Positions 4,985 to 63,659 of a stretch of DNA of 64,000 nt are shown in pieces (positions within the stretch are counted from its first letter, which is position 1; every line of letters begins with the position of its first letter). The notes under the pieces were generated by a model. It did no database searches and was not told the DNA's origin. It saw only the letters and a program-made list of their open reading frames with translations. The translations under genes were made by a program, and so were the position numbers. The DNA is taken from the NCBI GenBank assembly GCA_034667725.1, contig JAXDQS010000010.1:217937-281936 (forward strand). The letters run 5' to 3'. The DNA comes from Thermoplasmata archaeon (GTDB taxonomy: Archaea; Thermoplasmatota; E2; JACPAO01; JAHFTW01).

Positions 4985-5110
4985 CCGCCGGCCTTTCCGG
5001 TGCAGCCACTTGTTTTCCGCTCATCGGAAGCTGCGCGACGGCCCCGCCCCCAAGGGCAGGGTTCCACCGGAAGCAAGGGGGTCTCTGAAGGGGGCGGATA
5101 CCTATATTTC
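4985..5110. other. Candidate replication origin region with ORB-like elements upstream of orc1
   Basis: gttccaccggaagcaagggggtc at 5061-5083 resembles the archaeal origin recognition box (TTCCA-N-GGAA dyad plus G-string). A second G-string and partial dyads (ttccggtg at 4994, ttttccgctcatcggaagc) lie nearby. No strongly AT-rich unwinding element is visible. Confidence 0.35.
5102..5109 (+). promoter_or_regulatory. TATA-box-like element upstream of orc1
   Basis: ctatattt is an AT-rich octamer in a ~70% GC background, ~45 nt upstream of the in-frame ATG at 5153. Confidence 0.3.
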
Positions 5111-5152
5111 CCATGCCCGTCTTGGCACGAATCCCGCGGGGGTCCAGGACCC

Positions 5153-6523
5153 ATGGAACCCGTGCAGCCGCTGGGAGGCGGAGGCGCGGCGGAGGGTCCA
5201 CGGCACCGAGCTGGGAGGTTTCCTTCGTTGGCTGTCAATGACTTGTTTGGCCAGTTGCTCCAGGTCGAGCCCCTCTTCGTGAACAAGGAGGTCATGCGGG
5301 CCTCCTACACGCCCGACGACCTGCCGCACCGGGACACGGAGATCCGCTCGCTCGGCAGCCTGCTGGTCCCCGCCCTGCGCGGCGAGACCCCGTCGAACGT
5401 CTTCATCTACGGCAAGACCGGCACGGGCAAGACCGCCTGCGTCAAGTACGTCGGCAAGGAGCTCAGCCACAAGGGCGTCGAGCTCGGCAAGCGCGTCAAC
5501 CTCATCTACATCAACTGCGAGATCGTCGACACCCAGTACCGCGTCCTGCAGAACATCGCCAACGCCTTCGTCCCCGCAGAGAACTGGAACCACCGCATCC
5601 CCTTCACCGGCTGGCCCACGGACGAAGTGTACGAGGCGCTGCGGCGCTACGTCGACGGCTGGATGAAGGCCGACGACACCCAATGGGTCCGCGACCCCAG
5701 CCGCGTCGGCGGCGAGGTCACCATCATCGTGCTCGACGAGGTGGACAAGCTCAAGGGCGACGAGGTCCTCTACAACCTCACCCGCATCAACGGCGACCTG
5801 GCCCAGAACAAGGTCAGCGTCATCGGCATCTCGAACGACCTCAAGTTCACCGAGTTCCTCGACCCCCGCGTCAAGTCGTCCCTCGGCGAGGAATCGATGA
5901 TCTTCGCGCCCTACGACGCCAAGCAGCTCGAGGACATCCTGATGCAGCGCGCCACCATGGCGCTCAAGCTGAACGTCGTCCAGGACGGCGTCGTGCCCCT
6001 GTGCGCCGCCCTGGCCGCCCGCGAGCACGGCGACGCCCGCCGCGCCCTCGACCTCCTCCGCGTCGCCGCCGAATTGGCCGAGCGCGACCGCGCCCCCAAG
6101 GTCACCGACGCCCACGTCCGCATGGCCCAGAACAAGATCGAGCTGGACCGCATCAGCGAGGTCGTGCGCACCCTGCCCACCCAGAGCAAGCTCGTCCTGC
6201 TGGCCACCATCCTCGGCGAGGAGGCCAACCGCGACCAAGGCGTCCACACCCTCACCACCGGCGAGGTGTTCGACGTCTACAAGGACCTCTGCAAGCACAC
6301 CGGCAGCGACGTGCTGACCCAGCGCCGCATCACCGACCTCATCAGCGAGCTCGACATGCTCGGCATCTTCACGGCCCGCGTCATCTCGAAGGGCCGCTAC
6401 GGCCGCACCCGCGAGATCCAGATGAGCTGCCCCATCGACAGCACCAAGCGCGTGCTGGAGGAGGACGAGCTCATCCGGACGGTCGTGCAGCACAAGCCGA
6501 AGAAGCAGCATCGTCTGACTTGA
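5153..6523 (+). CDS. orc1: Orc1/Cdc6 replication initiator (AAA+ ATPase with C-terminal winged helix)
   Basis: Walker A GKTGTGKT, Walker B IIVLDEVD, and the conserved N-terminal YTPDDLPHRDTEI motif. Start uncertain: in-frame ATG at 5153 or TTG near 5228; the ORF-track start at 5000 is probably too far upstream. Confidence 0.85.
   Translation: MEPVQPLGGGGAAEGPRHRAGRFPSLAVNDLFGQLLQVEPLFVNKEVMRASYTPDDLPHRDTEIRSLGSLLVPALRGETPSNVFIYGKTGTGKTACVKYVGKELSHKGVELGKRVNLIYINCEIVDTQYRVLQNIANAFVPAENWNHRIPFTGWPTDEVYEALRRYVDGWMKADDTQWVRDPSRVGGEVTIIVLDEVDKLKGDEVLYNLTRINGDLAQNKVSVIGISNDLKFTEFLDPRVKSSLGEESMIFAPYDAKQLEDILMQRATMALKLNVVQDGVVPLCAALAAREHGDARRALDLLRVAAELAERDRAPKVTDAHVRMAQNKIELDRISEVVRTLPTQSKLVLLATILGEEANRDQGVHTLTTGEVFDVYKDLCKHTGSDVLTQRRITDLISELDMLGIFTARVISKGRYGRTREIQMSCPIDSTKRVLEEDELIRTVVQHKPKKQHRLT
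6485..6519 (+). repeat. Direct repeat copy 1 (last 35 nt of the orc1 coding sequence)
   Basis: gtgcagcacaagccgaagaagcagcatcgtctgac recurs 96 bp downstream. Confidence 0.7.
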
Positions 6524-6580
6524 CCTGGCCGGGGGGCCGCAGGCCTTGCCGCGGGGCGACCCTCGGGGCGGAGCCCCCGG

Positions 6581-6620
6581 GTGCAGCACAAGCCGAAGAA
6601 GCAGCATCGCATCGTCTGAC
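6581..6620 (+). repeat. Direct repeat copy 2 (duplicate of orc1 3' end with a 5-nt insertion)
   Basis: gtgcagcacaagccgaagaagcagcatcgCATCGtctgac; identical to copy 1 except for the inserted catcg. Confidence 0.7.
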
Positions 6621-6626
6621 GCCATC

Positions 6627-6668
6627 CACCGAGGACACCGAGACCACCGAAGTTCGGTGTCCTCGGTG
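6627..6668. terminator. Perfect 14-bp-stem hairpin between convergent orc1 and nob1
   Basis: caccgaggacaccg (6627-6640), 14-nt loop, cggtgtcctcggtg (6655-6668). Lies between two convergent stop codons. Confidence 0.4.
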
Positions 6669-6682
6669 CGCTCGGCGGATGG

Positions 6683-7201
6683 TCAGTCGTTGCCCCGCAT
6701 CGCCGGCTTGTGGGCTCCGCCCTGCACCGGCTTCGCCTTCACCGGCGACCCGCACACGATGCACTCCTCGCGCTTCGGCATCGTGTCGAACCAGCGGCCG
6801 CACCCGATGCAGCGCGGCCGGAAGTCCAGCGTCGCCGCGATGCCTTCGGTGTTGACCGTCTGCGTGCGCACGCCCAGGCGGCGCGCCACATCGAGGAGCG
6901 TGTAGTCGTCCGTGACCAGCGTGCCCGCCAGGTCGACGGCGAGGGCCGCGAGGCTCAGGTCGGCCGCGGACAGGCGGACCAGGTTGCCGGCCGCGGTGGC
7001 GACGTCGCGCACCCGCTCGACGGCCTCGGGTGTTGCGTCGCGGACCTGGAGGCCGGTGGCGATCCAGTTGTCGTAGCGGCGCGCGTCGCGGCCCCCCGTG
7101 GAGATTTCGGCGGCGGCCTCCGGCGTCGTGGCCCAGTTGGCAGAGCGGGGCGGGTCTTTGCCGCCAAGGAGCAGGCTGGTGTCCAGGACGAGCCAGGGCA
7201 C
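6683..7201 (-). CDS. nob1: Nob1-like PIN-domain endonuclease with C-terminal zinc ribbon
   Basis: 172 aa. N-terminal PIN-like acidic residues (VLDTS..., TDDYTLLDVA) and C-terminal CIGCGRWF...ECIVCG zinc ribbon, the archaeal Nob1 architecture. Confidence 0.6.
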   Translation of the reverse strand: MPWLVLDTSLLLGGKDPPRSANWATTPEAAAEISTGGRDARRYDNWIATGLQVRDATPEAVERVRDVATAAGNLVRLSAADLSLAALAVDLAGTLVTDDYTLLDVARRLGVRTQTVNTEGIAATLDFRPRCIGCGRWFDTMPKREECIVCGSPVKAKPVQGGAHKPAMRGND

Positions 7202-19265: not shown

Positions 19266-21383
19266 ATGCGTCCAGCGATGCTGCTTCCAGCCTTGGCCCT
19301 GGTGGGCCTGGGGCTTCTCACGATGATCCCGCACGAGGCCCAGGCCCAGGCGGTCATCGACAACGGCTTCGTCCAGGTCGGCGTCCGCGCCGACGGCGCC
19401 CTCATCGCCTCCCCGGTCTCGACCGACGGCGACTGCACCGTCGTCGGCGGCGTCACGGTCTGCACCGGCGGCGCCGGCACGGGCCTGGTCGGCCTGCGCC
19501 ACATGGCCACCGGCTACGAGTCGACGGCCGACGGCTGCGCCTGCGAGACCTGGGGCGTGTCGTACGACGGCGCCGTGTCGGGCTACGCCCGCAGCGGCAG
19601 CGCCGGCCCCGGCTCCGGCCTCACGCCGGTGGCGTTCTCGAACACCGCCAGCACCGCCGTGGCCACCGTGCGCGCCGGCGACCTGCTGGTCACCCACGAC
19701 TTCCACCCGACGGCACTCACCAACGACCTGTACGAGGTCAACGTCACCATCGAGAACACCGGCCCCGCCCACGTCGACCTGCGCTACCGCCGCGCCATGG
19801 ACTGGGACATCCAGCCCACCGCCTTCAGCGAGTTCGTCACCATCGAGGCCAAGAGCCCGCTGCCGACCGCGCTGTCCTGCTCCAGCGACGACGGCTTCGC
19901 CACCGGCAACCCCCTCAGCGGCCTCGGCTCGATCCTGATGTACGGCCCCGGCTGCGGCTCCGACTTCATCGACTCCGGCCCGAGCGACCACGGCGCCGCC
20001 TTCGACTTCCACTTCGGCGTCATCGCGGCCAGCGAGAAGCGCGAGTTCCGCATCTACTACGGCGCCGCCTCCTCCGAGATCGACGCCTACGCCGCCATGG
20101 CCGCGGTGGGCGCCGGCGTCTGGACCTTCGGGCAGTGCAACCCGGGCAGCAACCCCGCCTGCGACACCAGCACGGGCGCGCCGGCCACCTTCATGTTCGG
20201 CTTCGACGACGTCGACATCATCCCGGTCAAGCCCGCCAACATCCCGCCCGTCGCCGCCGGCACCTACCTCGCCCGCACCGCCTGCGAGGACTCCCGCGTC
20301 TCGTTCGACGGGAGCAAGAGCACCGACCCCGACGGCTTCGTCCGCACCCACGCCTGGACCTTCGGCGACGGCGGCAACGCCACCGGCGAGAAGGTCGACC
20401 ACCTCTACAAGGCGCCGGGCCCCTACACCGTGACGCACACTGTGATGGACAACAACGGCGCCCTCACCACCCGCACCTTCACCATCGTGAGCGCCGGCGA
20501 CCCCGACTGCTGCCTCAACCTCAACCCGGTCCCGCCCATCGACGCGATGGAGTTCGACGCCGTCGGCTTCCTGCCCATCGTCTGGGACTTCGAGGACGGC
20601 CCCTACAGCTTCGACCTGTTCCCGCTGCCGACGGGCGCCACCTTCAACCCCGCCACCGGAGAGTTCGGCTGGCCCACCGCGGCCGGCGACGCTGGCGCCT
20701 ACACCCTCACCCTGCTGGCCACGGACGGCGGCGGCTGCACCGTCGGCACCGAGGTCGACATCGCCGTCCGCCCGTACCCGCCGCCGCTGCCGCCCGCCGA
20801 GGACCATGACCTCGACGGCATCGCCAACGCGCAGGACAACTGCCCCGACCGCGTCAACCGCGACCAGGGCGACGCCGACCGCGACGGCCTCGGCGACCTG
20901 TGCGACGACGACCCCGGCCTCACGGGCCCGGAGGCCGAGGCCGCGCGCCGGCTGCGCGCCGGCGGCGCGCGCGACCGCGACCGCGACGGGGTCGCCGACG
21001 TGGCCGACGTCTGCCCCGACGTGGCCGACCGCGACCAGAAGGACCTCGACGGCGACCGCCTCGGCGACCTGTGCGACCCGGACGCCGACGGCGACACGGT
21101 GCGCGACCAGCCCGCCGCCGGCATCCCGGCCGACAACTGCCTCCAACTGGCCAACGCGGACCAGGCCGACGCGGACGGCGACGGCGTCGGCGACGCCTGC
21201 GCCGCCGACCGCCTCGCCGCCGCCCAGGCGCGCAGCAGCGACGCCGAAGGCCGGCCCGCCGTCCTGGCCGCCGAGCAAGGCGGCCTCGGCTCGGGCGCCA
21301 AGGCGTTCATGCTGGCGTTCGCCGCCGCAGGCCTCCTGGGCCTGCTGGTGGTCTTGGCCATCCTGCGCCGCAACGAAGCGTAG
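19266..21383 (+). CDS. Surface protein with PKD domain, Ig-like domain, TSP3 calcium-binding repeats and C-terminal TM anchor
   Basis: Signal peptide; PKD motif (FDGSKSTDPDGFVRTHAWTFGDGGNATGEKVDHLYKAPGPYTVTHTV); Asp-rich DxDxDGxxDxxDNCP repeats; C-terminal AFMLAFAAAGLLGLLVVLAILRRNEA. Paralogous to 57188..59221 and 61203..63659. Confidence 0.6.
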   Translation: MRPAMLLPALALVGLGLLTMIPHEAQAQAVIDNGFVQVGVRADGALIASPVSTDGDCTVVGGVTVCTGGAGTGLVGLRHMATGYESTADGCACETWGVSYDGAVSGYARSGSAGPGSGLTPVAFSNTASTAVATVRAGDLLVTHDFHPTALTNDLYEVNVTIENTGPAHVDLRYRRAMDWDIQPTAFSEFVTIEAKSPLPTALSCSSDDGFATGNPLSGLGSILMYGPGCGSDFIDSGPSDHGAAFDFHFGVIAASEKREFRIYYGAASSEIDAYAAMAAVGAGVWTFGQCNPGSNPACDTSTGAPATFMFGFDDVDIIPVKPANIPPVAAGTYLARTACEDSRVSFDGSKSTDPDGFVRTHAWTFGDGGNATGEKVDHLYKAPGPYTVTHTVMDNNGALTTRTFTIVSAGDPDCCLNLNPVPPIDAMEFDAVGFLPIVWDFEDGPYSFDLFPLPTGATFNPATGEFGWPTAAGDAGAYTLTLLATDGGGCTVGTEVDIAVRPYPPPLPPAEDHDLDGIANAQDNCPDRVNRDQGDADRDGLGDLCDDDPGLTGPEAEAARRLRAGGARDRDRDGVADVADVCPDVADRDQKDLDGDRLGDLCDPDADGDTVRDQPAAGIPADNCLQLANADQADADGDGVGDACAADRLAAAQARSSDAEGRPAVLAAEQGGLGSGAKAFMLAFAAAGLLGLLVVLAILRRNEA

Positions 21384-21438
21384 CCGAAAAAATCGAAGGA
21401 AACGGAAGGAAAAGGGAAGAAGGGAATGTCAGCTTGGC
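21384..21438 (-). terminator. T-rich/pyrimidine-rich tract downstream of the minus-strand gene
   Basis: Minus-strand reading ...cattcccttcttcccttttccttccgtttccttcgattttttcgg directly after the stop of 21439..22041. Confidence 0.3.
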
Positions 21439-22041
21439 TCAGAACAGGCTCGCGACCCCGGACACCATGCCGGAGAAGAACGCCTCGACCTGGCCCATGA
21501 AGCTCGCGTCGGCCTCGACGTCCGCCTGGGCGTCGACCGAGGCGTCCGCCTGCAGGCCCGCGTCGAGCTGGGCGTCGGCCGCGACGTCCGCGTCGACCGC
21601 CGCGTGGGCGTCCGCGGCCACGTTGGCGGCCGCGTCGAGCGCGCCGTCGACCGTGCCGTGGACCGTCGACTGGGCGGTCGCGGTGGCGGTGCCGGCCAGG
21701 CCGAGGCCCGTGCCGAGGGCACCGGTGGCGGTCGCCTGCGCGTCCGCCGTCACGTCGGCCGCGGCGTGGGCCGCGGCGTCGAGCTGGGCGTCGGCGTCGA
21801 CGCTGGCGTCGAGGGCCGCGTCGAGGTTGGCGTCGACGTTGGCGTCAAGGCTGGCGTCCGCATCCGCGGCGGCGTCCAGGCCAGCGTCCGCGGCGGCGTC
21901 GGCGGCAGCGTCCGCCGCGCCGGTCGCGCCGAGGCCGAGCATGGCCGTGCCCGGGATGGCCAGGGCCAGCAGGGCAGTCAGGGCAAGGGCAGCAAGGCCC
22001 GCCTTCTTCCAGGGTTTCTTGGGGGTGTGTTGGGGTTCCAT
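21439..22041 (-). CDS. Ala/Asp-rich low-complexity secreted protein
   Basis: Signal peptide after the internal Met (MEPQHTPKKPWKKAGLAALALTALLALAIPGTA), then ~150 aa of D-A-rich degenerate repeats; hydrophobic C-terminus. Confidence 0.4.
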   Translation of the reverse strand: MEPQHTPKKPWKKAGLAALALTALLALAIPGTAMLGLGATGAADAAADAAADAGLDAAADADASLDANVDANLDAALDASVDADAQLDAAAHAAADVTADAQATATGALGTGLGLAGTATATAQSTVHGTVDGALDAAANVAADAHAAVDADVAADAQLDAGLQADASVDAQADVEADASFMGQVEAFFSGMVSGVASLF

Positions 22042-27820: not shown

Positions 27821-28057
27821 TTGATGGTCCTGCGCTTCTTCCGCCGCAAGCCTGCCGCCAAGCCCCAGCCGCCTGCCGACAAGTCGCTCCCGGAGGTCTC
27901 GCGTCCCCAGCCCCCGCCCGTCGTGGCGCCCGAGCTGACCGAGTCCCCCAAGGCCCCTAAGCAGGTCAAGAAGGCCCCCGCCAAGAAGGCGGCCGCGAAG
28001 AAGGCCTCGGCCAAGAAGGCGCCTGCCAAGAAGGCGGCCGCGAAGAAGGCCAAGTAG
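27821..28057 (+). CDS. Small Lys/Ala-rich basic protein (histone H1-like KAAAKK repeats)
   Basis: 78 aa ending KKAPAKKAAAKKASAKKAPAKKAAAKKAK. Confidence 0.4.
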   Translation: MMVLRFFRRKPAAKPQPPADKSLPEVSRPQPPPVVAPELTESPKAPKQVKKAPAKKAAAKKASAKKAPAKKAAAKKAK

Positions 28058-42806: not shown

Positions 42807-43938
42807 CCGCGCCCTCTTGGCCGTCGCGGCGGCGCTGCTGCTGGCCGGCTGCCTGGGGTCGGTGGACGACGGCAGCCAGGCCCCGCCGCCGGACGCCTGC
42901 GCGGACGGCGTGCCGCCGTGCGTCCGCAACGCCGACGCCGAGCTGCTGGAGGCCAAGTACGGCTTCCGGCAACTCAGCAACGGCACCGGCCGGCCGCTCC
43001 AGCCGTGGGTCACGAACGGCTTCGCCGGCTGGTCGGTGTTCTACTCGGACGCCTCCCCCCGCGTGGACCTCGCGGCGCGGACCCTGGCGGAAGATGACGA
43101 CGACGGCGCGGCCCGCGGGCTCACGCTGGCGGCCGGCGGCAAGGTCGCCTACACCTTGACGCCGCTGGCCAACGACGCGCTCGACCACGCCCACGCCCGC
43201 CTGCTGCTGCAGGACGCCGCCACCGGCGAGGCCACGCCCCTCGTGGAGGACCGCGGGCTGTATCCTCGCGCCTTCGGCCCGCCGTGGCTGCTGCTGCAAG
43301 AAGACAAGGGCGACGGCGCGCCGCGCGACCTCTGGGCCCTCCACGTCGAGACGCGGGCGCTGCAACTGGTCTCCGACCGCAGCGGCGAGGCCCACGGCGG
43401 CCCCGTCGTGACCGGCCACGCCGTCGCCGGCCACCACGCCGTCTGGGCCGAGGCCGAGCCCCAGCCGGACGGAAGCTTCGCCTACTCGGTGCGCACCCGC
43501 GACCTGGAGGCCCAAGCCGACGGCCCGACGTTCCGCGTCGCCGGCGGCGGCGAGGTCGACTGGATCGCCAGCACCGGCGCCGCCGCGGCCATCCTGGTCG
43601 GCCACGACGCGGGCGCCGACCTTTTGCTCTTCGACCCCGCCACCGGCCAGGCACGCCCGCTGGGCCCCGAGCCCGGCTGGAACGCGGTGCTCGCCGCCGC
43701 GGGCGGCGGCGCCGTCGTCGTGGCCGAGCGCCGCGGCGACGACGAGGCCCGGCTGCGCCTCATCCGCGCCGACGGCACGTCGGAGGCGCTGGCGGACCTG
43801 GAGGAGCTGGCGGTGGCGTCGATGGCCACCGACGGCCACGACCTCGTGCTGGTGGCCTACGCGTCGCCAAGCCGCGGCCTGCGCTACGAAGGCACCCAGG
43901 TCTACTGGAAGCCGCTCGACCTCGGCAATCGCGCTTAA
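42693..43938 (+). CDS. Putative lipoprotein (beta-rich), start uncertain
   Basis: Lipobox LLLAGC after a basic n-region (TSRSRALLAVAAALLLAGCLG). The only upstream in-frame ATG (42693) overlaps the giant gene's 3' end by 113 nt in another frame; a TTG at 42816 is the alternative. Confidence 0.45.
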
Positions 43939-43941
43939 GAG

Positions 43942-44598
43942 TTGCACCTCCGTCGCGCCGCCGTGGCGCGCTTTGCGCGGGGGTCCGCCCCCTGGCTGCT
44001 GGCCCCCGTGACCCTCGCGGTCGTGCTGGTGGCCTACGGTCTGCAGTCGAAGGACGTCTGGCCGTTCGTCGCCGCGGTCCTGCCGCTCTTGGTGTTCGCG
44101 TTCTTCATCGTGTTCTTCCGCGACCCCGACCGCCTGGCCTCGGAAGGCATCGCGAGCCCCGCCGACGGCACCGTGAGCTTCATCGACGAGGTGGACGACC
44201 CCGACCTCGGCCGGGTCGAGCGCTTCTCGATCTTCATGTCGCCTAAGGACGTCCACGTCAACCGCTACCCGGTGGACGGCACCGTCGTGTCGGTGCTGCA
44301 CAAGCCCGGCGGCCACGTGCCCGCCTTCAACAAGGAGGCCGAGCGCAACGAGCGGGTCGAGACCCTGCTGGCCACCGCCCACGGCCGCGTCAAGGTCATC
44401 CAGATCGCCGGCACCGTGGCCCGCCGCATCGTGCCCTACCACAAGGCCGGCGAGGCCGCCGTCAAGGGCGAGCGCTTCGGCCTCATCCGCCTCGGCTCGC
44501 GCTGCGACATCCTGGTCGCGCCCGGCACGGTGCGCTGGACCGTCCCGCCCGGCACCCAGGTCTACGCCGGCACCACCAGCCTGGGGGCGTTCAAGTGA
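43942..44598 (+). CDS. psd: Archaetidylserine (phosphatidylserine) decarboxylase proenzyme, short form
   Basis: 218 aa; N-terminal membrane helices, Psd-like core and a near-C-terminal GTTS motif consistent with the self-cleavage site of short PSDs. Confidence 0.65.
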   Translation: MHLRRAAVARFARGSAPWLLAPVTLAVVLVAYGLQSKDVWPFVAAVLPLLVFAFFIVFFRDPDRLASEGIASPADGTVSFIDEVDDPDLGRVERFSIFMSPKDVHVNRYPVDGTVVSVLHKPGGHVPAFNKEAERNERVETLLATAHGRVKVIQIAGTVARRIVPYHKAGEAAVKGERFGLIRLGSRCDILVAPGTVRWTVPPGTQVYAGTTSLGAFK

Positions 44599-57187: not shown

Positions 57188-59221
57188 ATGACATCGTCTG
57201 CCGCCTGGGCCGCCTTCGGCGTCCTGGCCGCCCTTGCCGCCACCGGCATCGTCCTGTTGGCGACCCCCGCCGAGGCCGCGGTCATCCTGGAGCCGGCCGG
57301 CCCGCTGGAGCAAATCCACATCTCGCGCTCCAAGACGCTCGACTGCCAGGTGATGTACATCGGCACGGTGTACAGCTTCCCCGGCAGCGAGGCGGACGGC
57401 GAGTTCTGGGGCGTCGGCTCGGGCTCGTGCGGCACTTTCCTGCACGTGGTGGGCGACCAGACCTACGGCCCGCCGGTCGAAGGCTACGGCCCGCCCTACA
57501 TGGCGGGCGGCATCCCGCCCACGCCCTACACGCCCGTCAGCCAGGTCGGCCCCACCGGCACCGGCACCGTCGCGGACCCGTGGACCATCGACACGGTGGC
57601 GCGCGCCGTCGGCCCCGGCACCTTGGTCGAGCTGCACCAGGTGGACGAGTACGTCAAGGGCGACGAGTACTACACCACCACCGTCACCGTCAGCAACCTC
57701 GGCGCCGCCGCGGTGGACCTCATCCTCTACCGCGCCGGCGACTGCTACCTCACCACCACGAGCGCGGACCCCGACTCGGGCTACGGCTACCTCGACGTCG
57801 CCAACCACACCGTGGCCTGCACCGAGACGCCCGGCGGCGCCACCGGCCGCATCATCGAGTGGGTGCCCCTCACGCCCGGCGCGCACGCCGAGCACAACGA
57901 GTGGGACGACATCTGGATGCGCCCGATGTACGGCGACGAGATGGCCGACACCTGCCTGTGCGCCACGTTCCTCGACAACGGCGCCGGCCTGAGCTGGGCG
58001 TTCAGCCTCGGCGTGGGCCAGGACAAGACCTACGCCAACAACAACGTGTTCTCGCCGACCGGCGTCCCGCCGCCCCCCGACCCGGACGTCCCGCCCGTCG
58101 CCCGCGCCACCGCCGCCCCCGGCGAGCGCACCTGCTTCTCGGCGCCGTTCTTCTTCAGCGGCACGGCCTCCACCGACTCCGACGGCACCATCGTCTCCTA
58201 CCTGTGGGACTTCGGCGACGGCTCCCCCGTCGGCGCGGGCGCCACCACCAGCCACGACTACCCCGCCGCCGGCACCTACACCGTGCGCCTCACGGTGACC
58301 GACGACGACAAGCTTGCGCACACGGTCACCTTCACCATCACGAGCCTCGGCGACACCGACTGCCCGTTCACGCTGCGGGTGTTCGACTCGACGGTGCGCG
58401 AGGGCGCCCTGCTGCGCTTCTGCATCCAGGCCGAGGACCTCGACGGCGGCGCGTTCACCTACGCCGCGACCTACCCCGGCGGCCTGCCGGCCGGCCTCGA
58501 GTTCGATGTCGCCGGCTGCCTCGACTGGACCCCCGCCCAAGGCCAGGCCGGCAAGTACGACTGCCTCACCTTCACGGCCATGCAGGGCGGCGGCCCCACC
58601 GGGGCGCCGTTCCAGACCGCCACCGACTGCGCCACCATCACCGTCGTGGCCGTCCCGCCCGTCCAGGCGACCGACGACACCGACATGGACGGGGTCGCCG
58701 ACGAGGCCGACAACTGCCCGTCGCACGTCAACCGCGACCAGGCCGACAGCGACCGCGACGGCCCCGGCGACGCCTGCGACCCCGTGGCGCCGCAGGCCCG
58801 CGACCCCAGCGTCCCGACGCGCAACCTCGCCGGCCCCGGCGACCAGGACGGCGACCGCGTCGCCGACCGCCTCGACAACTGCCCGGAGCGCCCGAACGCC
58901 TCGCAGGACGACCGCGACCGCGACGGCCTCGGCGACGGCTGCGACCCCGACGAGGACGGCGACGGCATCATCGTCGGCGGCCCCTTCACCGACAACTGCC
59001 CGCTCGCGGCGAACCGCGACCAGGCCGACGCCGACCGCGACGGCGTCGGCGACGCCTGCGACCTGGCCGGCGTGACGGCCGCGTTCGTGCCCGCGCGCGG
59101 CAACGAGCCCGCCCTGCACTCCGCCCGCGCCGGCCCCTCCGTGTGGCCGTGGGTCGCGGCGGCGGCGCTGGGCGCGCTGGCCGCGGCGGCCTTGGTGGCG
59201 GTCGTGCGCCGGCGGGCCTAG
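57188..59221 (+). CDS. Surface protein with PKD domain, Ig-like domain, TSP3 repeats and C-terminal TM anchor (paralogue 2)
   Basis: Signal peptide MTSSAAWAAFGVLAALAATGIVLLATPAEA; PKD motif (YLWDFGDGSPVGAGATTSHDYPAAGTYTVRLTV); CPxT...RFC Ig-like region; DxDxDGxxDxxDNCP repeats; C-terminus GPSVWPWVAAAALGALAAAALVAVVRRRA. Confidence 0.6.
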   Translation: MTSSAAWAAFGVLAALAATGIVLLATPAEAAVILEPAGPLEQIHISRSKTLDCQVMYIGTVYSFPGSEADGEFWGVGSGSCGTFLHVVGDQTYGPPVEGYGPPYMAGGIPPTPYTPVSQVGPTGTGTVADPWTIDTVARAVGPGTLVELHQVDEYVKGDEYYTTTVTVSNLGAAAVDLILYRAGDCYLTTTSADPDSGYGYLDVANHTVACTETPGGATGRIIEWVPLTPGAHAEHNEWDDIWMRPMYGDEMADTCLCATFLDNGAGLSWAFSLGVGQDKTYANNNVFSPTGVPPPPDPDVPPVARATAAPGERTCFSAPFFFSGTASTDSDGTIVSYLWDFGDGSPVGAGATTSHDYPAAGTYTVRLTVTDDDKLAHTVTFTITSLGDTDCPFTLRVFDSTVREGALLRFCIQAEDLDGGAFTYAATYPGGLPAGLEFDVAGCLDWTPAQGQAGKYDCLTFTAMQGGGPTGAPFQTATDCATITVVAVPPVQATDDTDMDGVADEADNCPSHVNRDQADSDRDGPGDACDPVAPQARDPSVPTRNLAGPGDQDGDRVADRLDNCPERPNASQDDRDRDGLGDGCDPDEDGDGIIVGGPFTDNCPLAANRDQADADRDGVGDACDLAGVTAAFVPARGNEPALHSARAGPSVWPWVAAAALGALAAAALVAVVRRRA

Positions 59222-61202: not shown

Positions 61203-63659
61203 TTGTCGCTTGGTCGGTGGCTGCTTGCCCTTGGGCTCGTGCTGCTCGGCGTCGCCGTGGCCGTCGAGGCGCGCGAGTACTGGACGGCCGACCTGCCGAC
61301 CTTCTGCGGCACCAAGGGCCCCACCATCGACCTCCTGAACCCGTCCCCCACGATCGCCACCGCCACCGTCACCACGGAAGGCATCTCGACGGTCTACGTG
61401 GTGCTGCCCGACTCGGCCTTCGTGATCAAGCCCGCGTCCCCGATCCCAGGCAGCGGCATCGGGGTCGCGGGCGTCTACCACATCGACACCGGGACGGGCC
61501 CTGTCGTGCCCCTGCTGGCCGGCGACGAGGTGCCGTCGTGCGGCGACGCCAACCGCATCCTGCCCACCGACGCCTTGGGCACCAACCACGTCCTCCACAC
61601 CTTCCCCGCGACCACCTACGCCACCGACCGCTCGTTCTTCACGGTCATCGCCACCGAGGACGACACCACCGTCGGCATCTTCCTGCAAGGCACCCCGACG
61701 ACGCCGGGCGGCGGCCTGCCTCCCATGGTCCCCGGCGTCAGCTACTCCTACGTCCTTGCCCGCGGCGTCGCGCTCACCGCAGTCTCCGGCCCCTCCACGG
61801 TGCTGGCGATGGCGGCGTTCGACGGCACCAACATCGTCTCCGACAAGCCCGTGAGCGTCTGGTCCGGCAACTTCCACAGCACCTACGGCATGGCCTCCGG
61901 CGGCGCGGACCAGATCTGGAACCAGCACCCGCCCACGCGGCTGTGGGGCACCGAGTACGTCGCCTGCTCCACCCTGGACCCGATGGTGCGCGCCAGCGGC
62001 ACCGAGCGGCTCCGGTTCGGCAACGCGTTCGTCCCGGCCACCGTCACCTTGGACCCGCCTCCCGTGGGCGCGGCAAGCGGCGTCTACGCCCTCGCCGCCA
62101 ACGCGTGGCTGGAGGTCAACGTCGACAGCAACACCCGCATCACCTCGACCGAGCCGATCCAGGCGCTGCACATCATGGTCCCCGACTCGCCGCCGCCGCT
62201 CGGCGACGTCGACATCCTGCCGCTGGCGCCGACCTCGCTCTGGACCGAGGAGCACCTGCTCTACGCCTCGCCCAACTACCCCGTGCGCCACCTCGCCATG
62301 GTGGTCCCGGCCGGCGGCGCCGCGGCGCTCGACGGCACCCTGGTCACGGGCGGCACCCCGGTCGGCGCCTCCGGCTACCGGTGCGCGCTCCAGCCGGTGG
62401 CGGCCGGCCTGCACCGCGTCACCGGCACCCAGCCGCTCGGCAACTGGATGATGGGCCAGACCCCGTTCTCCGGCTCCTACTGGTACGAGGACGCCGGCCT
62501 CCCCAAGGTGCTGCCGCCTCCGCCGCCGCCCCCGCCGCCCCGCCCGCCGGTGGCGGTGCCGGCCGTGGCCGGCGCGGGCACGAGCTGCGTGGACAGCGCC
62601 GTGCTGCTCACCGGCATCGCCTCGTTCGACCCCGACCTCGGCGGCACGGTCGTGGCGTGGGCGTGGGACTTCGGGGATGGCGTGAAGGGCGCCGGCAAGA
62701 CCGTCGCGCACGAGTACGCGCTCGCCGGCGATTACACCGTCACCCTCACCGTCACCGACAACGACGGCATGACGCACACGGCCACGCTCCTGGTCCACGT
62801 CGCCGTCGACGCCGACTGCCCCGCCACCCTCGTCACCGGCCATTCCTTGGTGCGCGAGCGCGACACCGTCCGGTTCTGTGTTGCCGCCAGCGACCCCGAC
62901 GGCGGCCCCTTCACCTTCACCCTCGCCTGGCCCGACGGCGAGCCCGCCGGCGTCACCTTCACGCCCGACGGCTGCCTCAGTTGGCGCACCTCCGTCGGCC
63001 AGGCCGGCTTCTACCCGTGCCTGCTGTTCACGGCCCTCGGACCCGGCGGCCCCGTGGCCGGCTGCGCCACCGTCGAGGTGCTGCCGTGGCCCCGCCCCGA
63101 TCCGACCCTCGACACCGACCTCGATGGCGTGGCCGACACTCAGGACAACTGTCCTTACGACGCCAACCGCGACCAGGCGGACGACGACCTCGACGGCCTC
63201 GGCGACCTGTGCGACCCGACGCCCCTGCGGCGCGACCTCGCCAATCCCGGTCCCGAACGGCTTGGCCGCGCCCGCGACGCCGACCGCGACGGCATCGCCG
63301 ACCCCGCCGACAACTGCCCGCTGGCGCCCAACACCTCGCAGGCCGACCGCGACCGCGACGGCGCCGGCGACGCCTGCGACCCGGACGCCGACGGCGACGG
63401 CGTCGCGACGGCGGGCGCGTTCCCCGACAACTGCCCCGACGCCGCCAACCCCGACCAGCGCGACGCCGACGCCAACGGCCACGGCGACGCCTGCGACGCC
63501 GCCGCGCCCGCCGCGCCGCGCGCCCTGGCGCGCGGCCGCGAGGCGGCGGCGTCGGTCGGCGGCGGCGCGCCGTGGGCCGTGGCGGCCGTCGGGCTGGGGG
63601 CGGCAGCGCCCCTGCTGGCGTGGGCCGTCGTGCGCCGCAAGTTCGCTGCCAAACCTTAA
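61203..63659 (+). CDS. Surface protein with PKD domain, Ig-like domain, TSP3 repeats and C-terminal TM anchor (paralogue 3)
   Basis: Probable TTG start giving a signal peptide (LSLGRWLLALGLVLLGVAVAVEA); PKD motif (AWAWDFGDGVKGAGKTVAHEYALAGDYTVTLTV); CPATL...RFC region; TSP3 repeats; C-terminus GAPWAVAAVGLGAAAPLLAWAVVRRKFAAKP. Confidence 0.55.
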   Translation: MSLGRWLLALGLVLLGVAVAVEAREYWTADLPTFCGTKGPTIDLLNPSPTIATATVTTEGISTVYVVLPDSAFVIKPASPIPGSGIGVAGVYHIDTGTGPVVPLLAGDEVPSCGDANRILPTDALGTNHVLHTFPATTYATDRSFFTVIATEDDTTVGIFLQGTPTTPGGGLPPMVPGVSYSYVLARGVALTAVSGPSTVLAMAAFDGTNIVSDKPVSVWSGNFHSTYGMASGGADQIWNQHPPTRLWGTEYVACSTLDPMVRASGTERLRFGNAFVPATVTLDPPPVGAASGVYALAANAWLEVNVDSNTRITSTEPIQALHIMVPDSPPPLGDVDILPLAPTSLWTEEHLLYASPNYPVRHLAMVVPAGGAAALDGTLVTGGTPVGASGYRCALQPVAAGLHRVTGTQPLGNWMMGQTPFSGSYWYEDAGLPKVLPPPPPPPPPRPPVAVPAVAGAGTSCVDSAVLLTGIASFDPDLGGTVVAWAWDFGDGVKGAGKTVAHEYALAGDYTVTLTVTDNDGMTHTATLLVHVAVDADCPATLVTGHSLVRERDTVRFCVAASDPDGGPFTFTLAWPDGEPAGVTFTPDGCLSWRTSVGQAGFYPCLLFTALGPGGPVAGCATVEVLPWPRPDPTLDTDLDGVADTQDNCPYDANRDQADDDLDGLGDLCDPTPLRRDLANPGPERLGRARDADRDGIADPADNCPLAPNTSQADRDRDGAGDACDPDADGDGVATAGAFPDNCPDAANPDQRDADANGHGDACDAAAPAAPRALARGREAAASVGGGAPWAVAAVGLGAAAPLLAWAVVRRKFAAKP

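Follow-up and report, generated by a model that had tools for sequence, protein, structure and literature searches.

A duplicated orc1 gene end behind a hairpin spacer in a Thermoplasmata genome, with similar tail–hairpin–tail layouts at other gene ends

The orc1 locus and its duplicated gene end

The 64-kb stretch of DNA analysed here (the window) comes from a Thermoplasmata metagenome-assembled genome (MAG) with 72% G+C. It carries an orc1/cdc6 gene whose last codons occur a second time downstream, the two copies of this tail being separated by a short spacer with hairpins (S) and the second being followed by a further hairpin (H) that extends to the end of a convergent nob1-like gene. The contigs or loci that were compared with the window are given L-numbers and proteins P-numbers. 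The features of the locus are as follows:

5060–6580, plus strand: conserved block with an origin-recognition-box-like element, promoter, orc1 and S (blastn against L074)
5228–6523, plus strand: active orc1/cdc6 gene (open reading frame [ORF]; Pfam Cdc6_C, Cdc6_lid and AAA)
6485–6519, plus strand: copy 1, the proximal tail, 35 nt (sequence comparison)
6520–6580, plus strand: spacer S, 61 nt, two GC mini-hairpins (orthologues after orc1 in L074 and L033)
6581–6620, plus strand: copy 2, the distal tail, a 40-nt relic of an orc1 terminus (sequence comparison)
6622–6682, no strand assigned: hairpin H (stem search and repeat analysis)
6683–7201, minus strand: Nob1-like PIN-domain gene, convergent, with which the right-hand gene block starts (Pfam PIN_6)

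The active orc1 gene has a TTG start and codes for 431 amino acids, its product being identical to MEA3191231.1 (P0001, 100% match) with the C-terminus ...VVQHKPKKQHRLT before the stop. Copy 1 consists of the 11 final complete codons of the gene and the first two bases of its last Thr codon; the stop codon lies just beyond it at 6521–6523, and the active gene end reads VQHKPKKQHRLT. Copy 2 begins with GTG and reads VQHKPKKQHRIV, i.e. (V)QHKPKKQHRIV, with its stop at 6617–6619. The 29-mer GTGCAGCACAAGCCGAAGAAGCAGCATCG is present at 6485–6513 and at 6581–6609 (29/29 identical), and the match resumes as GCATCGTCTGAC at 6508–6519 and 6609–6620, copy 2 being 40 nt rather than 35 nt with a second CATCG. 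The copies are spaced 96 nt apart, which equals 32 codons, and copy 2 is therefore in frame with orc1. No third copy of the 29-mer exists in the 64 kb with up to three mismatches allowed, nor did one appear in 100 shuffles, and a blastn-short search of the window returned no further copy of the repeat, of S or of H. The same structure is present in JGI contig Ga0467041_0000015 (L005), in which 7 of 16,523 bases differ (99.96% identical). As this is an independent assembly, it argues against an assembly artefact, and the duplicated tail is a real structure.

Spacer S possesses two hairpins, these being GGCC-GCA-GGCC (6535–6545) and GGGGC-GGA-GCCCC (6565–6577). The loop of the second has the motif GGAG, 7 nt upstream of the GTG of copy 2, and this GGAG-N7-RTG arrangement (RTG being ATG or GTG) is also seen in L003. 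The motif CCGGGTG stands at the spacer end in the window, L009, and L022, an observation made post hoc. The ends of S show sub-terminal complementarity only (CCGGGGGGC/GCCCCCGG), with no clear terminal inverted repeats. In Rfam, the region 6400–6750 gave nothing at gathering score, the hits being sub-threshold ones to miRNA-type or generic hairpins.

Hairpin H has a perfect stem of 15 bp, in which 6627–6641 pairs with 6654–6668 around a 12-nt loop, and its outer arms of 30 nt (6622–6682) are 83% complementary. It is the sole perfect stem of at least 12 bp in the window, where mononucleotide shuffles average 0.55. H fills the whole gap from the stop of copy 2 to that of nob1 (6683–6685) and is composed of three direct 9-nt units (CACCGAG..), namely CACCGAGGA, CACCGAGAC, CACCGAAGT) followed by three inverted ones; it could be a protein-binding dyad and not just an RNA hairpin. 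An intrinsic terminator, i.e. a hairpin with a T-run, was considered and rejected, there being no T-run after S or H on either strand.

The original prediction for this DNA, made from the letters of the sequence, had the last 35 nt of orc1 repeated 96 bp downstream with a 5-nt insertion, which is just what the two copies show. It also described a perfect hairpin of 14 bp between the convergent orc1 and nob1 stops. The hairpin is there and is perfect, with a stem of 15 bp, and the anatomy is right except that the adjoining stop is that of copy 2 and not that of active orc1. Its caution about assembly error is answered by the identical structure in L005.

With blastn, window positions 5060–6587 align with 1315–2846 of L074 at 86% identity, and homology ends on both sides, starting at the origin-recognition-box-like GGTTCCACCGGAAGCAAGGGGG and stopping at the S/copy-2 boundary (~6587). 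L074 is the nearest relative by protein (93% amino-acid identity) and has orc1, an orthologous S and then a different convergent gene, the second tail being absent. S also follows orc1 in L033, and a comparison of L033 with L074 reveals a compensatory change in its first hairpin (GGGGCC/GGCCCC vs GGAGCC/GGCTCC). With the relatives other than L074, the alignment reaches the gene end only. In all relatives examined, orc1 is flanked by different genes on both sides. The nob1 neighbour is shared with L005; in every other relative, neither nob1 nor mdh occurs within 6 kb of orc1. The genes downstream of copy 2 in the window are housekeeping genes (nob1, mdh, NAC). Judged from these alignments, S is native to the 3′ side of orc1 in this subclade and not foreign. 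As S is conserved with orc1, homology stops behind it and the flanks differ, 6580/6581 is read as a junction that joins two blocks, with an origin–orc1–S unit on the left and on the right a block that begins with an orc1 tail. An identical duplication in all relatives was not seen, that of the window being shared only with the same-species assembly, while other lineages have analogous, independent structures.

The C-terminus was compared over the first 60 homologue tails, all close relatives included. Towards its end Orc1 reads ...Q-x-R/K-L/I in these tails, followed in all close relatives by a hydrophobic last residue, and the final T of the active gene occurs elsewhere among the 60 tails only in P0055 (...KIT). 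Copy 2 ends in CAT CGC ATC GTC TGA, the corresponding end being CAT CGC ATC GTT TAG in the real gene of L024 and CAC CGC ATC GTC TGA in a relic in L033; its last codons match real termini in L024 and L029 as well as that relic. The active end CGT CTG ACT TGA CCT aligns gap-free with CGC CTG GTC TGA CCT of L074. The copies may thus differ either by a 5-nt indel or by being two allelic termini after a shared 29 nt, and either way copy 2 has the look of a genuine former end of orc1. The active Orc1 C-terminus (…HRLT) is derived. The stop of copy 2, H and the stop of nob1 together occupy just 63 nt, resembling a compact convergent gene pair.

Upstream of orc1, the region 4995–5110 contains GGTTCCACCGGAAGCAAGGGGG at 5060–5081, a partly inverted relative of it (TTCCGGTGCAGCC) at 4995–5007 and a TATA-like CCTATATTT at about 5101. 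This region is probably the replication origin together with the orc1 promoter, going by these motifs. Similar origin boxes are found in L022, L074, and L024. The centre of H, CCACCGAAGTTCGGTG, loosely resembles the origin-box core CCACCGGAA.

Tail–hairpin–tail layouts at other gene ends

Two unbiased scans were made over ~340 kb (the window and non-redundant related loci), one at the nucleotide level and one at the protein level with 1266 ORF ends. The layout (tail–hairpin spacer)n–tail was identified at seven gene ends, namely four of orc1 (window, L027, L077, and L033, the last from a targeted orc1 scan), two of TGT (L003 and L022) and one of another gene (L009). The remaining matches were ordinary coding repeats in the nucleotide scan and, in the protein scan, low-complexity matches in spurious arginine-rich frames. 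Enrichment is seen at two origin-flanking genes (Fisher P = 5e-5). Outside the window, the units measure 77, 91, 97, 125, 133, and 179 nt and have no consistent reading-frame relation; across all cases the spacers are 42–86 nt long and the duplicated tails 27–112 nt. Every spacer contains perfect GC hairpins whose loops are GNA, GNRA or similarly small, the spacers of L009, L022, L027, and L077 being unrelated in sequence.

In L003 (2378–2607), the last 11 TGT codons and a 61-nt S-like spacer occur exactly twice (97-nt unit), followed by a third, diverged tail (MAVRVREAIPV vs MAVRVRESIPT before the stop). This array lies between TGT and orc1, is also found in L013 (about 5378–5607), and its spacer is a close cousin of S in the window with the same length and the same two hairpins. 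In L009 (1083–1291), ~5 kb from orc1, the last 8 codons of a gene (...RRIVSPIEIGA, stop) and a 64-nt spacer with the hairpin CCGGCCC-GCAA-GGGCCGG occur twice (91-nt unit), with a third tail that differs by one synonymous base. L077 (1345–1534) has three orc1 tails in a 77-nt unit, all encoding NVKPRKQLRLV and a stop, with up to 9 of the 11 codons synonymously changed. L027 (7186–7470) has two full orc1 tails and a partial one, with a repeated GACAAGCCC-GTA-GGGCTTGTC hairpin. In L022 (3306–3603), a second copy of the last ~112 nt of TGT lies 179 nt downstream, with 96% identity and mostly synonymous changes, and is directly followed by a canonical origin box GGATTCCACAGGAAACAAGGGGG.

The tails within each of these loci differ as follows:

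L027: 8 nucleotide differences, 0 amino-acid changes
L077, copy 1 vs copy 2: 9 nucleotide differences, 0 amino-acid changes
L077, copy 1 vs copy 3: 4 nucleotide differences, 0 amino-acid changes
L033: 17 nucleotide differences, 4 amino-acid changes, all conservative
L022: 9 nucleotide differences, 2 amino-acid changes
L003: 11 nucleotide differences, 2 amino-acid changes

Random substitution reproduces such coding conservation with P ≤ 5e-5 in L027, L033, L077, and L003. Old in-situ duplicates decaying neutrally are ruled out by differences that are nearly all synonymous, and the pattern fits relics that were functional alleles until recently or that are under continuing selection. The relic of L033 is 87% identical to the functional tail of L074 and 72% to the tail of L033 itself, and therefore derives from a different allele there. 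The G+C content at third codon positions is 0.70 in the active tail of L033 (155–214) and 0.95 in its relic (288–347), the genome being at ~0.95. In L027 and L077, the gene and its relics share lineage-specific residues despite saturated synonymous change. At its left edge, the distal copy has ATG or GTG in four of six cases, a fifth having TTG/GTG there (P ~1e-6 against random positions), and given an RTG edge its in-frame position is not significant (P = 0.18). The distal copies of L077 have ACG in place of ATG, and copy 2 there is without an in-frame start.

The pair of hairpins seen in S, GGCCGCAGGCC ... GGGGCGGAGCCCC, was also found in 40 metagenome contigs (L034–L073) with G+C contents of 0.38–0.76 and from diverse taxa. 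In these a GCGGGGT-like motif is often present between the hairpins and the outer stem of the first hairpin covaries. L042 has a flanking duplication of ~45 nt, most of the 40 being without one, and with tblastn none of the 40 hits lay beside an orc1 or TGT gene. As the hits are heterogeneous and away from these genes, the motif pair is not by itself diagnostic of an element specific to the clade; it may be a widespread two-hairpin intergenic element. A literature search for the motif strings returned nothing relevant, and we did not find a published description of the recurring tail–hairpin–tail pattern at origin-flanking genes of the clade.

A different arrangement is present in L001 (4283–4400), where the final 13 nt of orc1, stop included (CCGTCTGGTCTAG), are found again 13 nt downstream in the opposite orientation and form a hairpin across the stop codon. 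Part of this inverted copy recurs 58 nt further on, inside a 3-copy 38-nt repeat.

A proposed recombination seam and its alternatives

The reading that we prefer, with a probability of roughly 0.45, is that position 6580/6581 is a recombination seam at which an incoming origin–orc1–S block displaced the resident orc1. It builds on the block boundary, on the conserved S, on the resemblance of copy 2 to an authentic terminus and on the recurrence of the layout elsewhere; the direction of the event, the mechanism of recombination and the gene conversion step are what we infer. The former resident orc1 would have ended in ...HRIV, run straight into H and converged on nob1, H being an old shared 3′ hairpin of that gene pair. 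The incoming or re-inserted origin–orc1–S block would then have replaced the resident gene and spared its last 12 codons, probably by a homologous crossover inside or upstream of orc1 and an illegitimate join where the hairpin module ends on its outer side. As homology stops at S/copy 2, and copy 2 ends like real termini and abuts H, copy 2 would be the displaced end of the former orc1, and this relic is probably inert. The coding capacity kept by diverged relics in other loci is expected under a seam, because each would have been a working gene end until recently. The 29-nt identity of the tails in the window would reflect near-identical donor and recipient strains or later gene conversion between close repeats.

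Several points weigh against a seam. A displaced foreign allele is expected to differ, yet the tails of the window are 100% identical over 29 nt, and the gene-conversion step or same-strain donor that must be assumed is the weakest step of the argument. In L077, the junctions of two consecutive units fall at one position, for which tandem amplification is a better explanation than a pair of separate illegitimate joins. The ATG/GTG left edges of the distal copies are not predicted by such a model, and the shared residues with synonymous change in L027 and L077 hint at continuing selection rather than recent displacement. It should also be mentioned that no S-free orc1–hairpin–nob1 genome, representing the state before the event, was present among the relatives examined.

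An alternative, which we consider unlikely, is that S is a small mobile or insertion-prone hairpin element that inserted in situ at the orc1 end with a long target duplication (29–35 nt here and 27–112 nt elsewhere), the upstream copy keeping the gene intact so that only such insertions survive. The similar 61-nt spacer after TGT in L003, flanked by copies of TGT's own tail, speaks for this, as do the motif pair in the 40 metagenome contigs with the flanking duplication of L042, the sharp edges of the repeats and the identity of the window copies, which fresh target duplications would have. However, S is vertically conserved beside orc1 in L074 without a duplication, and the duplications vary widely in length and lie far outside known transposition mechanisms, target duplications usually being fixed at 2–15 bp. 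S also lacks clear terminal inverted repeats and occurs just once in the 64 kb, four of the other spacers are unrelated in sequence, the near-only synonymous divergence is unlike that of in-situ duplicates decaying neutrally, and the metagenome hits may partly be due to chance in GC-rich DNA (an estimate rather than a computed value).

Less probable again is a local tandem duplication through slippage or unequal exchange, with a unit made of the tail and a ~61-nt hairpin module, in which very stable hairpins would promote the event and S and H would be two modules that have since diverged. The unit sizes are alike (35 + 61 = 96 nt vs 40 + 62 = 102 nt), L003 and L009 have exact two-unit arrays, L077 and L027 have genuine arrays of three units with a related spacer behind each tail, and hairpins with GNA/GNRA loops stand in every spacer. 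Head-to-tail copies of one unit are present in L003, L009, and L077 and absent from the window. There, S and H have no sequence similarity despite 100% identity of the tails, S has an orthologue in the flank of L074 and H has none, and slippage gives unit–unit–X and not tail–S–tail–X. The simple slipped duplication that the original prediction had offered is therefore insufficient for the window, since the S that follows copy 1 is unrelated to the H that follows copy 2, Tandem Repeats Finder calls no 96-nt period, and S belongs to the conserved orc1 block while copy 2 and H belong to a different one.

It is similarly doubtful that the tail–hairpin–tail arrays are a distinct, undescribed feature, with hairpin modules at the ends of origin-flanking genes, ATG/GTG-to-stop duplications and tails under selection at the amino-acid level. 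If true, they would represent 3′ mini-ORFs that are translated, or a new mechanism of insertion that itself repairs the gene end. The start-like left edges of the distal copies, the GGAG 7 nt ahead of them in the window and L003, the CCGGGTG motif and the residues shared by gene and relics in L027 and L077 leave some room for such a feature.

We give still less credence to a functional distal copy in the window, i.e. a putative mini-ORF of 12 codons (GTG...TGA) in the 3′ untranslated region of orc1 that is kept by selection and for which S provides the Shine-Dalgarno-like GGAG 7 nt upstream; read-through of the in-frame TGA would be another route. At the amino-acid level, conservation is seen in the distal copies of L027, L077, L033, L022, and L003, which have changed mainly in third codon positions, the duplicated segment spans a start-like codon to the stop in most cases (see above), GGAG-N7-RTG is shared by the window and L003, and copy 2 of the window is in frame with orc1, 32 codons downstream. 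On the other side, there is no consistent frame relation elsewhere, the in-frame position is not significant once the RTG edge is given, the distal copies of L077 lack the start, and there is no rationale for peptides that only reproduce the C-terminal ends of unrelated proteins (Orc1, TGT, and another).

The least supported of the alternatives, and a very improbable one, is that the repeats are an attL/attR-type scar of an integrase-mediated element at the 3′ end of orc1, later almost wholly deleted: direct repeats of a gene 3′ end, with a 29-nt identical core and the frame restored by a proximal copy that completes orc1, are the classic signature of integration, and the regions around orc1 are hypervariable among relatives, but unlike such duplications the repeats here enclose no element, just 61 nt of conserved native orc1 flank, no integrase-family Pfam hit was recorded for the genes within 10 kb on either side (L005), no tRNA gene lies in the window, housekeeping genes follow downstream, and for the same layout with unrelated spacers at TGT and another gene, near-total deletions would have to have occurred many times independently. 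Of the integration or excision footprint that had been suggested for this gene end, a recombination footprint thus stands and an integrase att site is not supported, there being no further copy of the 29-mer in the 64-kb window with up to three mismatches.

Other systems were considered and rejected. A diversity-generating retroelement with variable and template repeats does not apply, as there is no reverse transcriptase family within 10 kb on either side, the window copies are identical apart from the terminal segment and the differences in other loci are not adenine-specific. An array resembling clustered regularly interspaced short palindromic repeats was dismissed with two repeats only, identical 'spacers' in L003 and L009 and no cas family among the neighbours. 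The splicing of a bulge-helix-bulge intron, programmed frameshifting or bypassing and an origin from ribosome footprints do not fit either, owing to inconsistent unit lengths or to the absence of the enzymes or signals.

Relation to known systems and other repeats of the window

C-terminal displacement with orphan 3′ ends is known from rhs, CDI (contact-dependent inhibition) and T6SS (type VI secretion system) effector loci, where it is attributed to homology-facilitated illegitimate recombination (Jackson et al., 2009; Kirchberger et al., 2017, PMC5361080). A recombination seam at orc1 would resemble it in that a conserved gene works with a new 3′ end and the previous end is left downstream as a fragment, in that repeated events give arrays through one homologous and one illegitimate junction, and in that the relics resemble recently functional alleles. 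The window has the intact gene, the homologous 3′ fragment, the non-homologous DNA between them and a block boundary at the junction. A relic from a different allele is seen in L033, the window copies being identical over 29 nt and differing in the last 10–11 nt. However, the genes here are archaeal housekeeping genes (orc1, TGT), both tails encode the same peptide so that no function is gained, the displaced pieces are only 27–112 nt long, and between the tails lies a hairpin module of 42–86 nt in place of a toxin/immunity cassette.

As a short GC-rich hairpin module at gene 3′ ends, with similar copies at another gene and in other taxa, S is also similar to repetitive extragenic palindromic (REP) sequences, miniature inverted-repeat transposable elements (MITEs) and mycobacterial interspersed repetitive units (MIRUs). 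As in the latter, the repeat units here carry small ORFs that abut the stop of the neighbouring gene. Unlike in these families, no terminal inverted repeats were found for S, which is single-copy within the 64 kb, and its duplications far exceed the target duplications of transposons. The MIRU ORFs, unlike copy 2, are not copies of the tail of the upstream gene.

Capture and mobility of archaeal origin–orc1 modules have reportedly been treated by Robinson and Bell in 2007 and in haloarchaeal comparative origin studies. The present locus is similar in that the origin box and orc1 behave as one unit whose flanks vary between close relatives. To our knowledge, the studies of origin modules make no mention of gene tails that are duplicated around hairpin spacers where a module ends.

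Should the seam be true, these scars would be direct sequence evidence of repeated swapping or re-insertion of origin–initiator modules in uncultured Thermoplasmatota, and a stranded gene tail after a hairpin module would be a cheap marker for such events in MAGs. If the relic tails are selected or are made by a dedicated mechanism, they would represent a new kind of small element or 3′ mini-ORF. The 29-nt direct repeats also predict a deletion allele with the 29-mer joined straight to CATCGTCTGAC and H, ending in …HRIV. The structure is likely to be ordinary in its consequence, being an inert scar with a 3′ hairpin, and is informative through its recurring pattern.

The window has further repeats. 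An exact 18-nt repeat, TCGTGCTGGTGGCCTACG, is present at 43844–43861 and 44021–44038, 177 nt apart and spanning a gene boundary, with the mini-hairpin GGGGGTCCGCCCCC between its copies. It was rejected as a second case of the layout described above, being a shared LVLVAY-coding stretch that is probably due to chance. Coding tandem repeats were identified at 20802–21922, 27964–28051, 58676–59072, and 63111–63507, including a 12/18-nt periodic array at 21506–21922 and a 15-nt AKKA-type repeat at 27964–28051. There is also a 115-nt repeat family common to three distant genes of the window.

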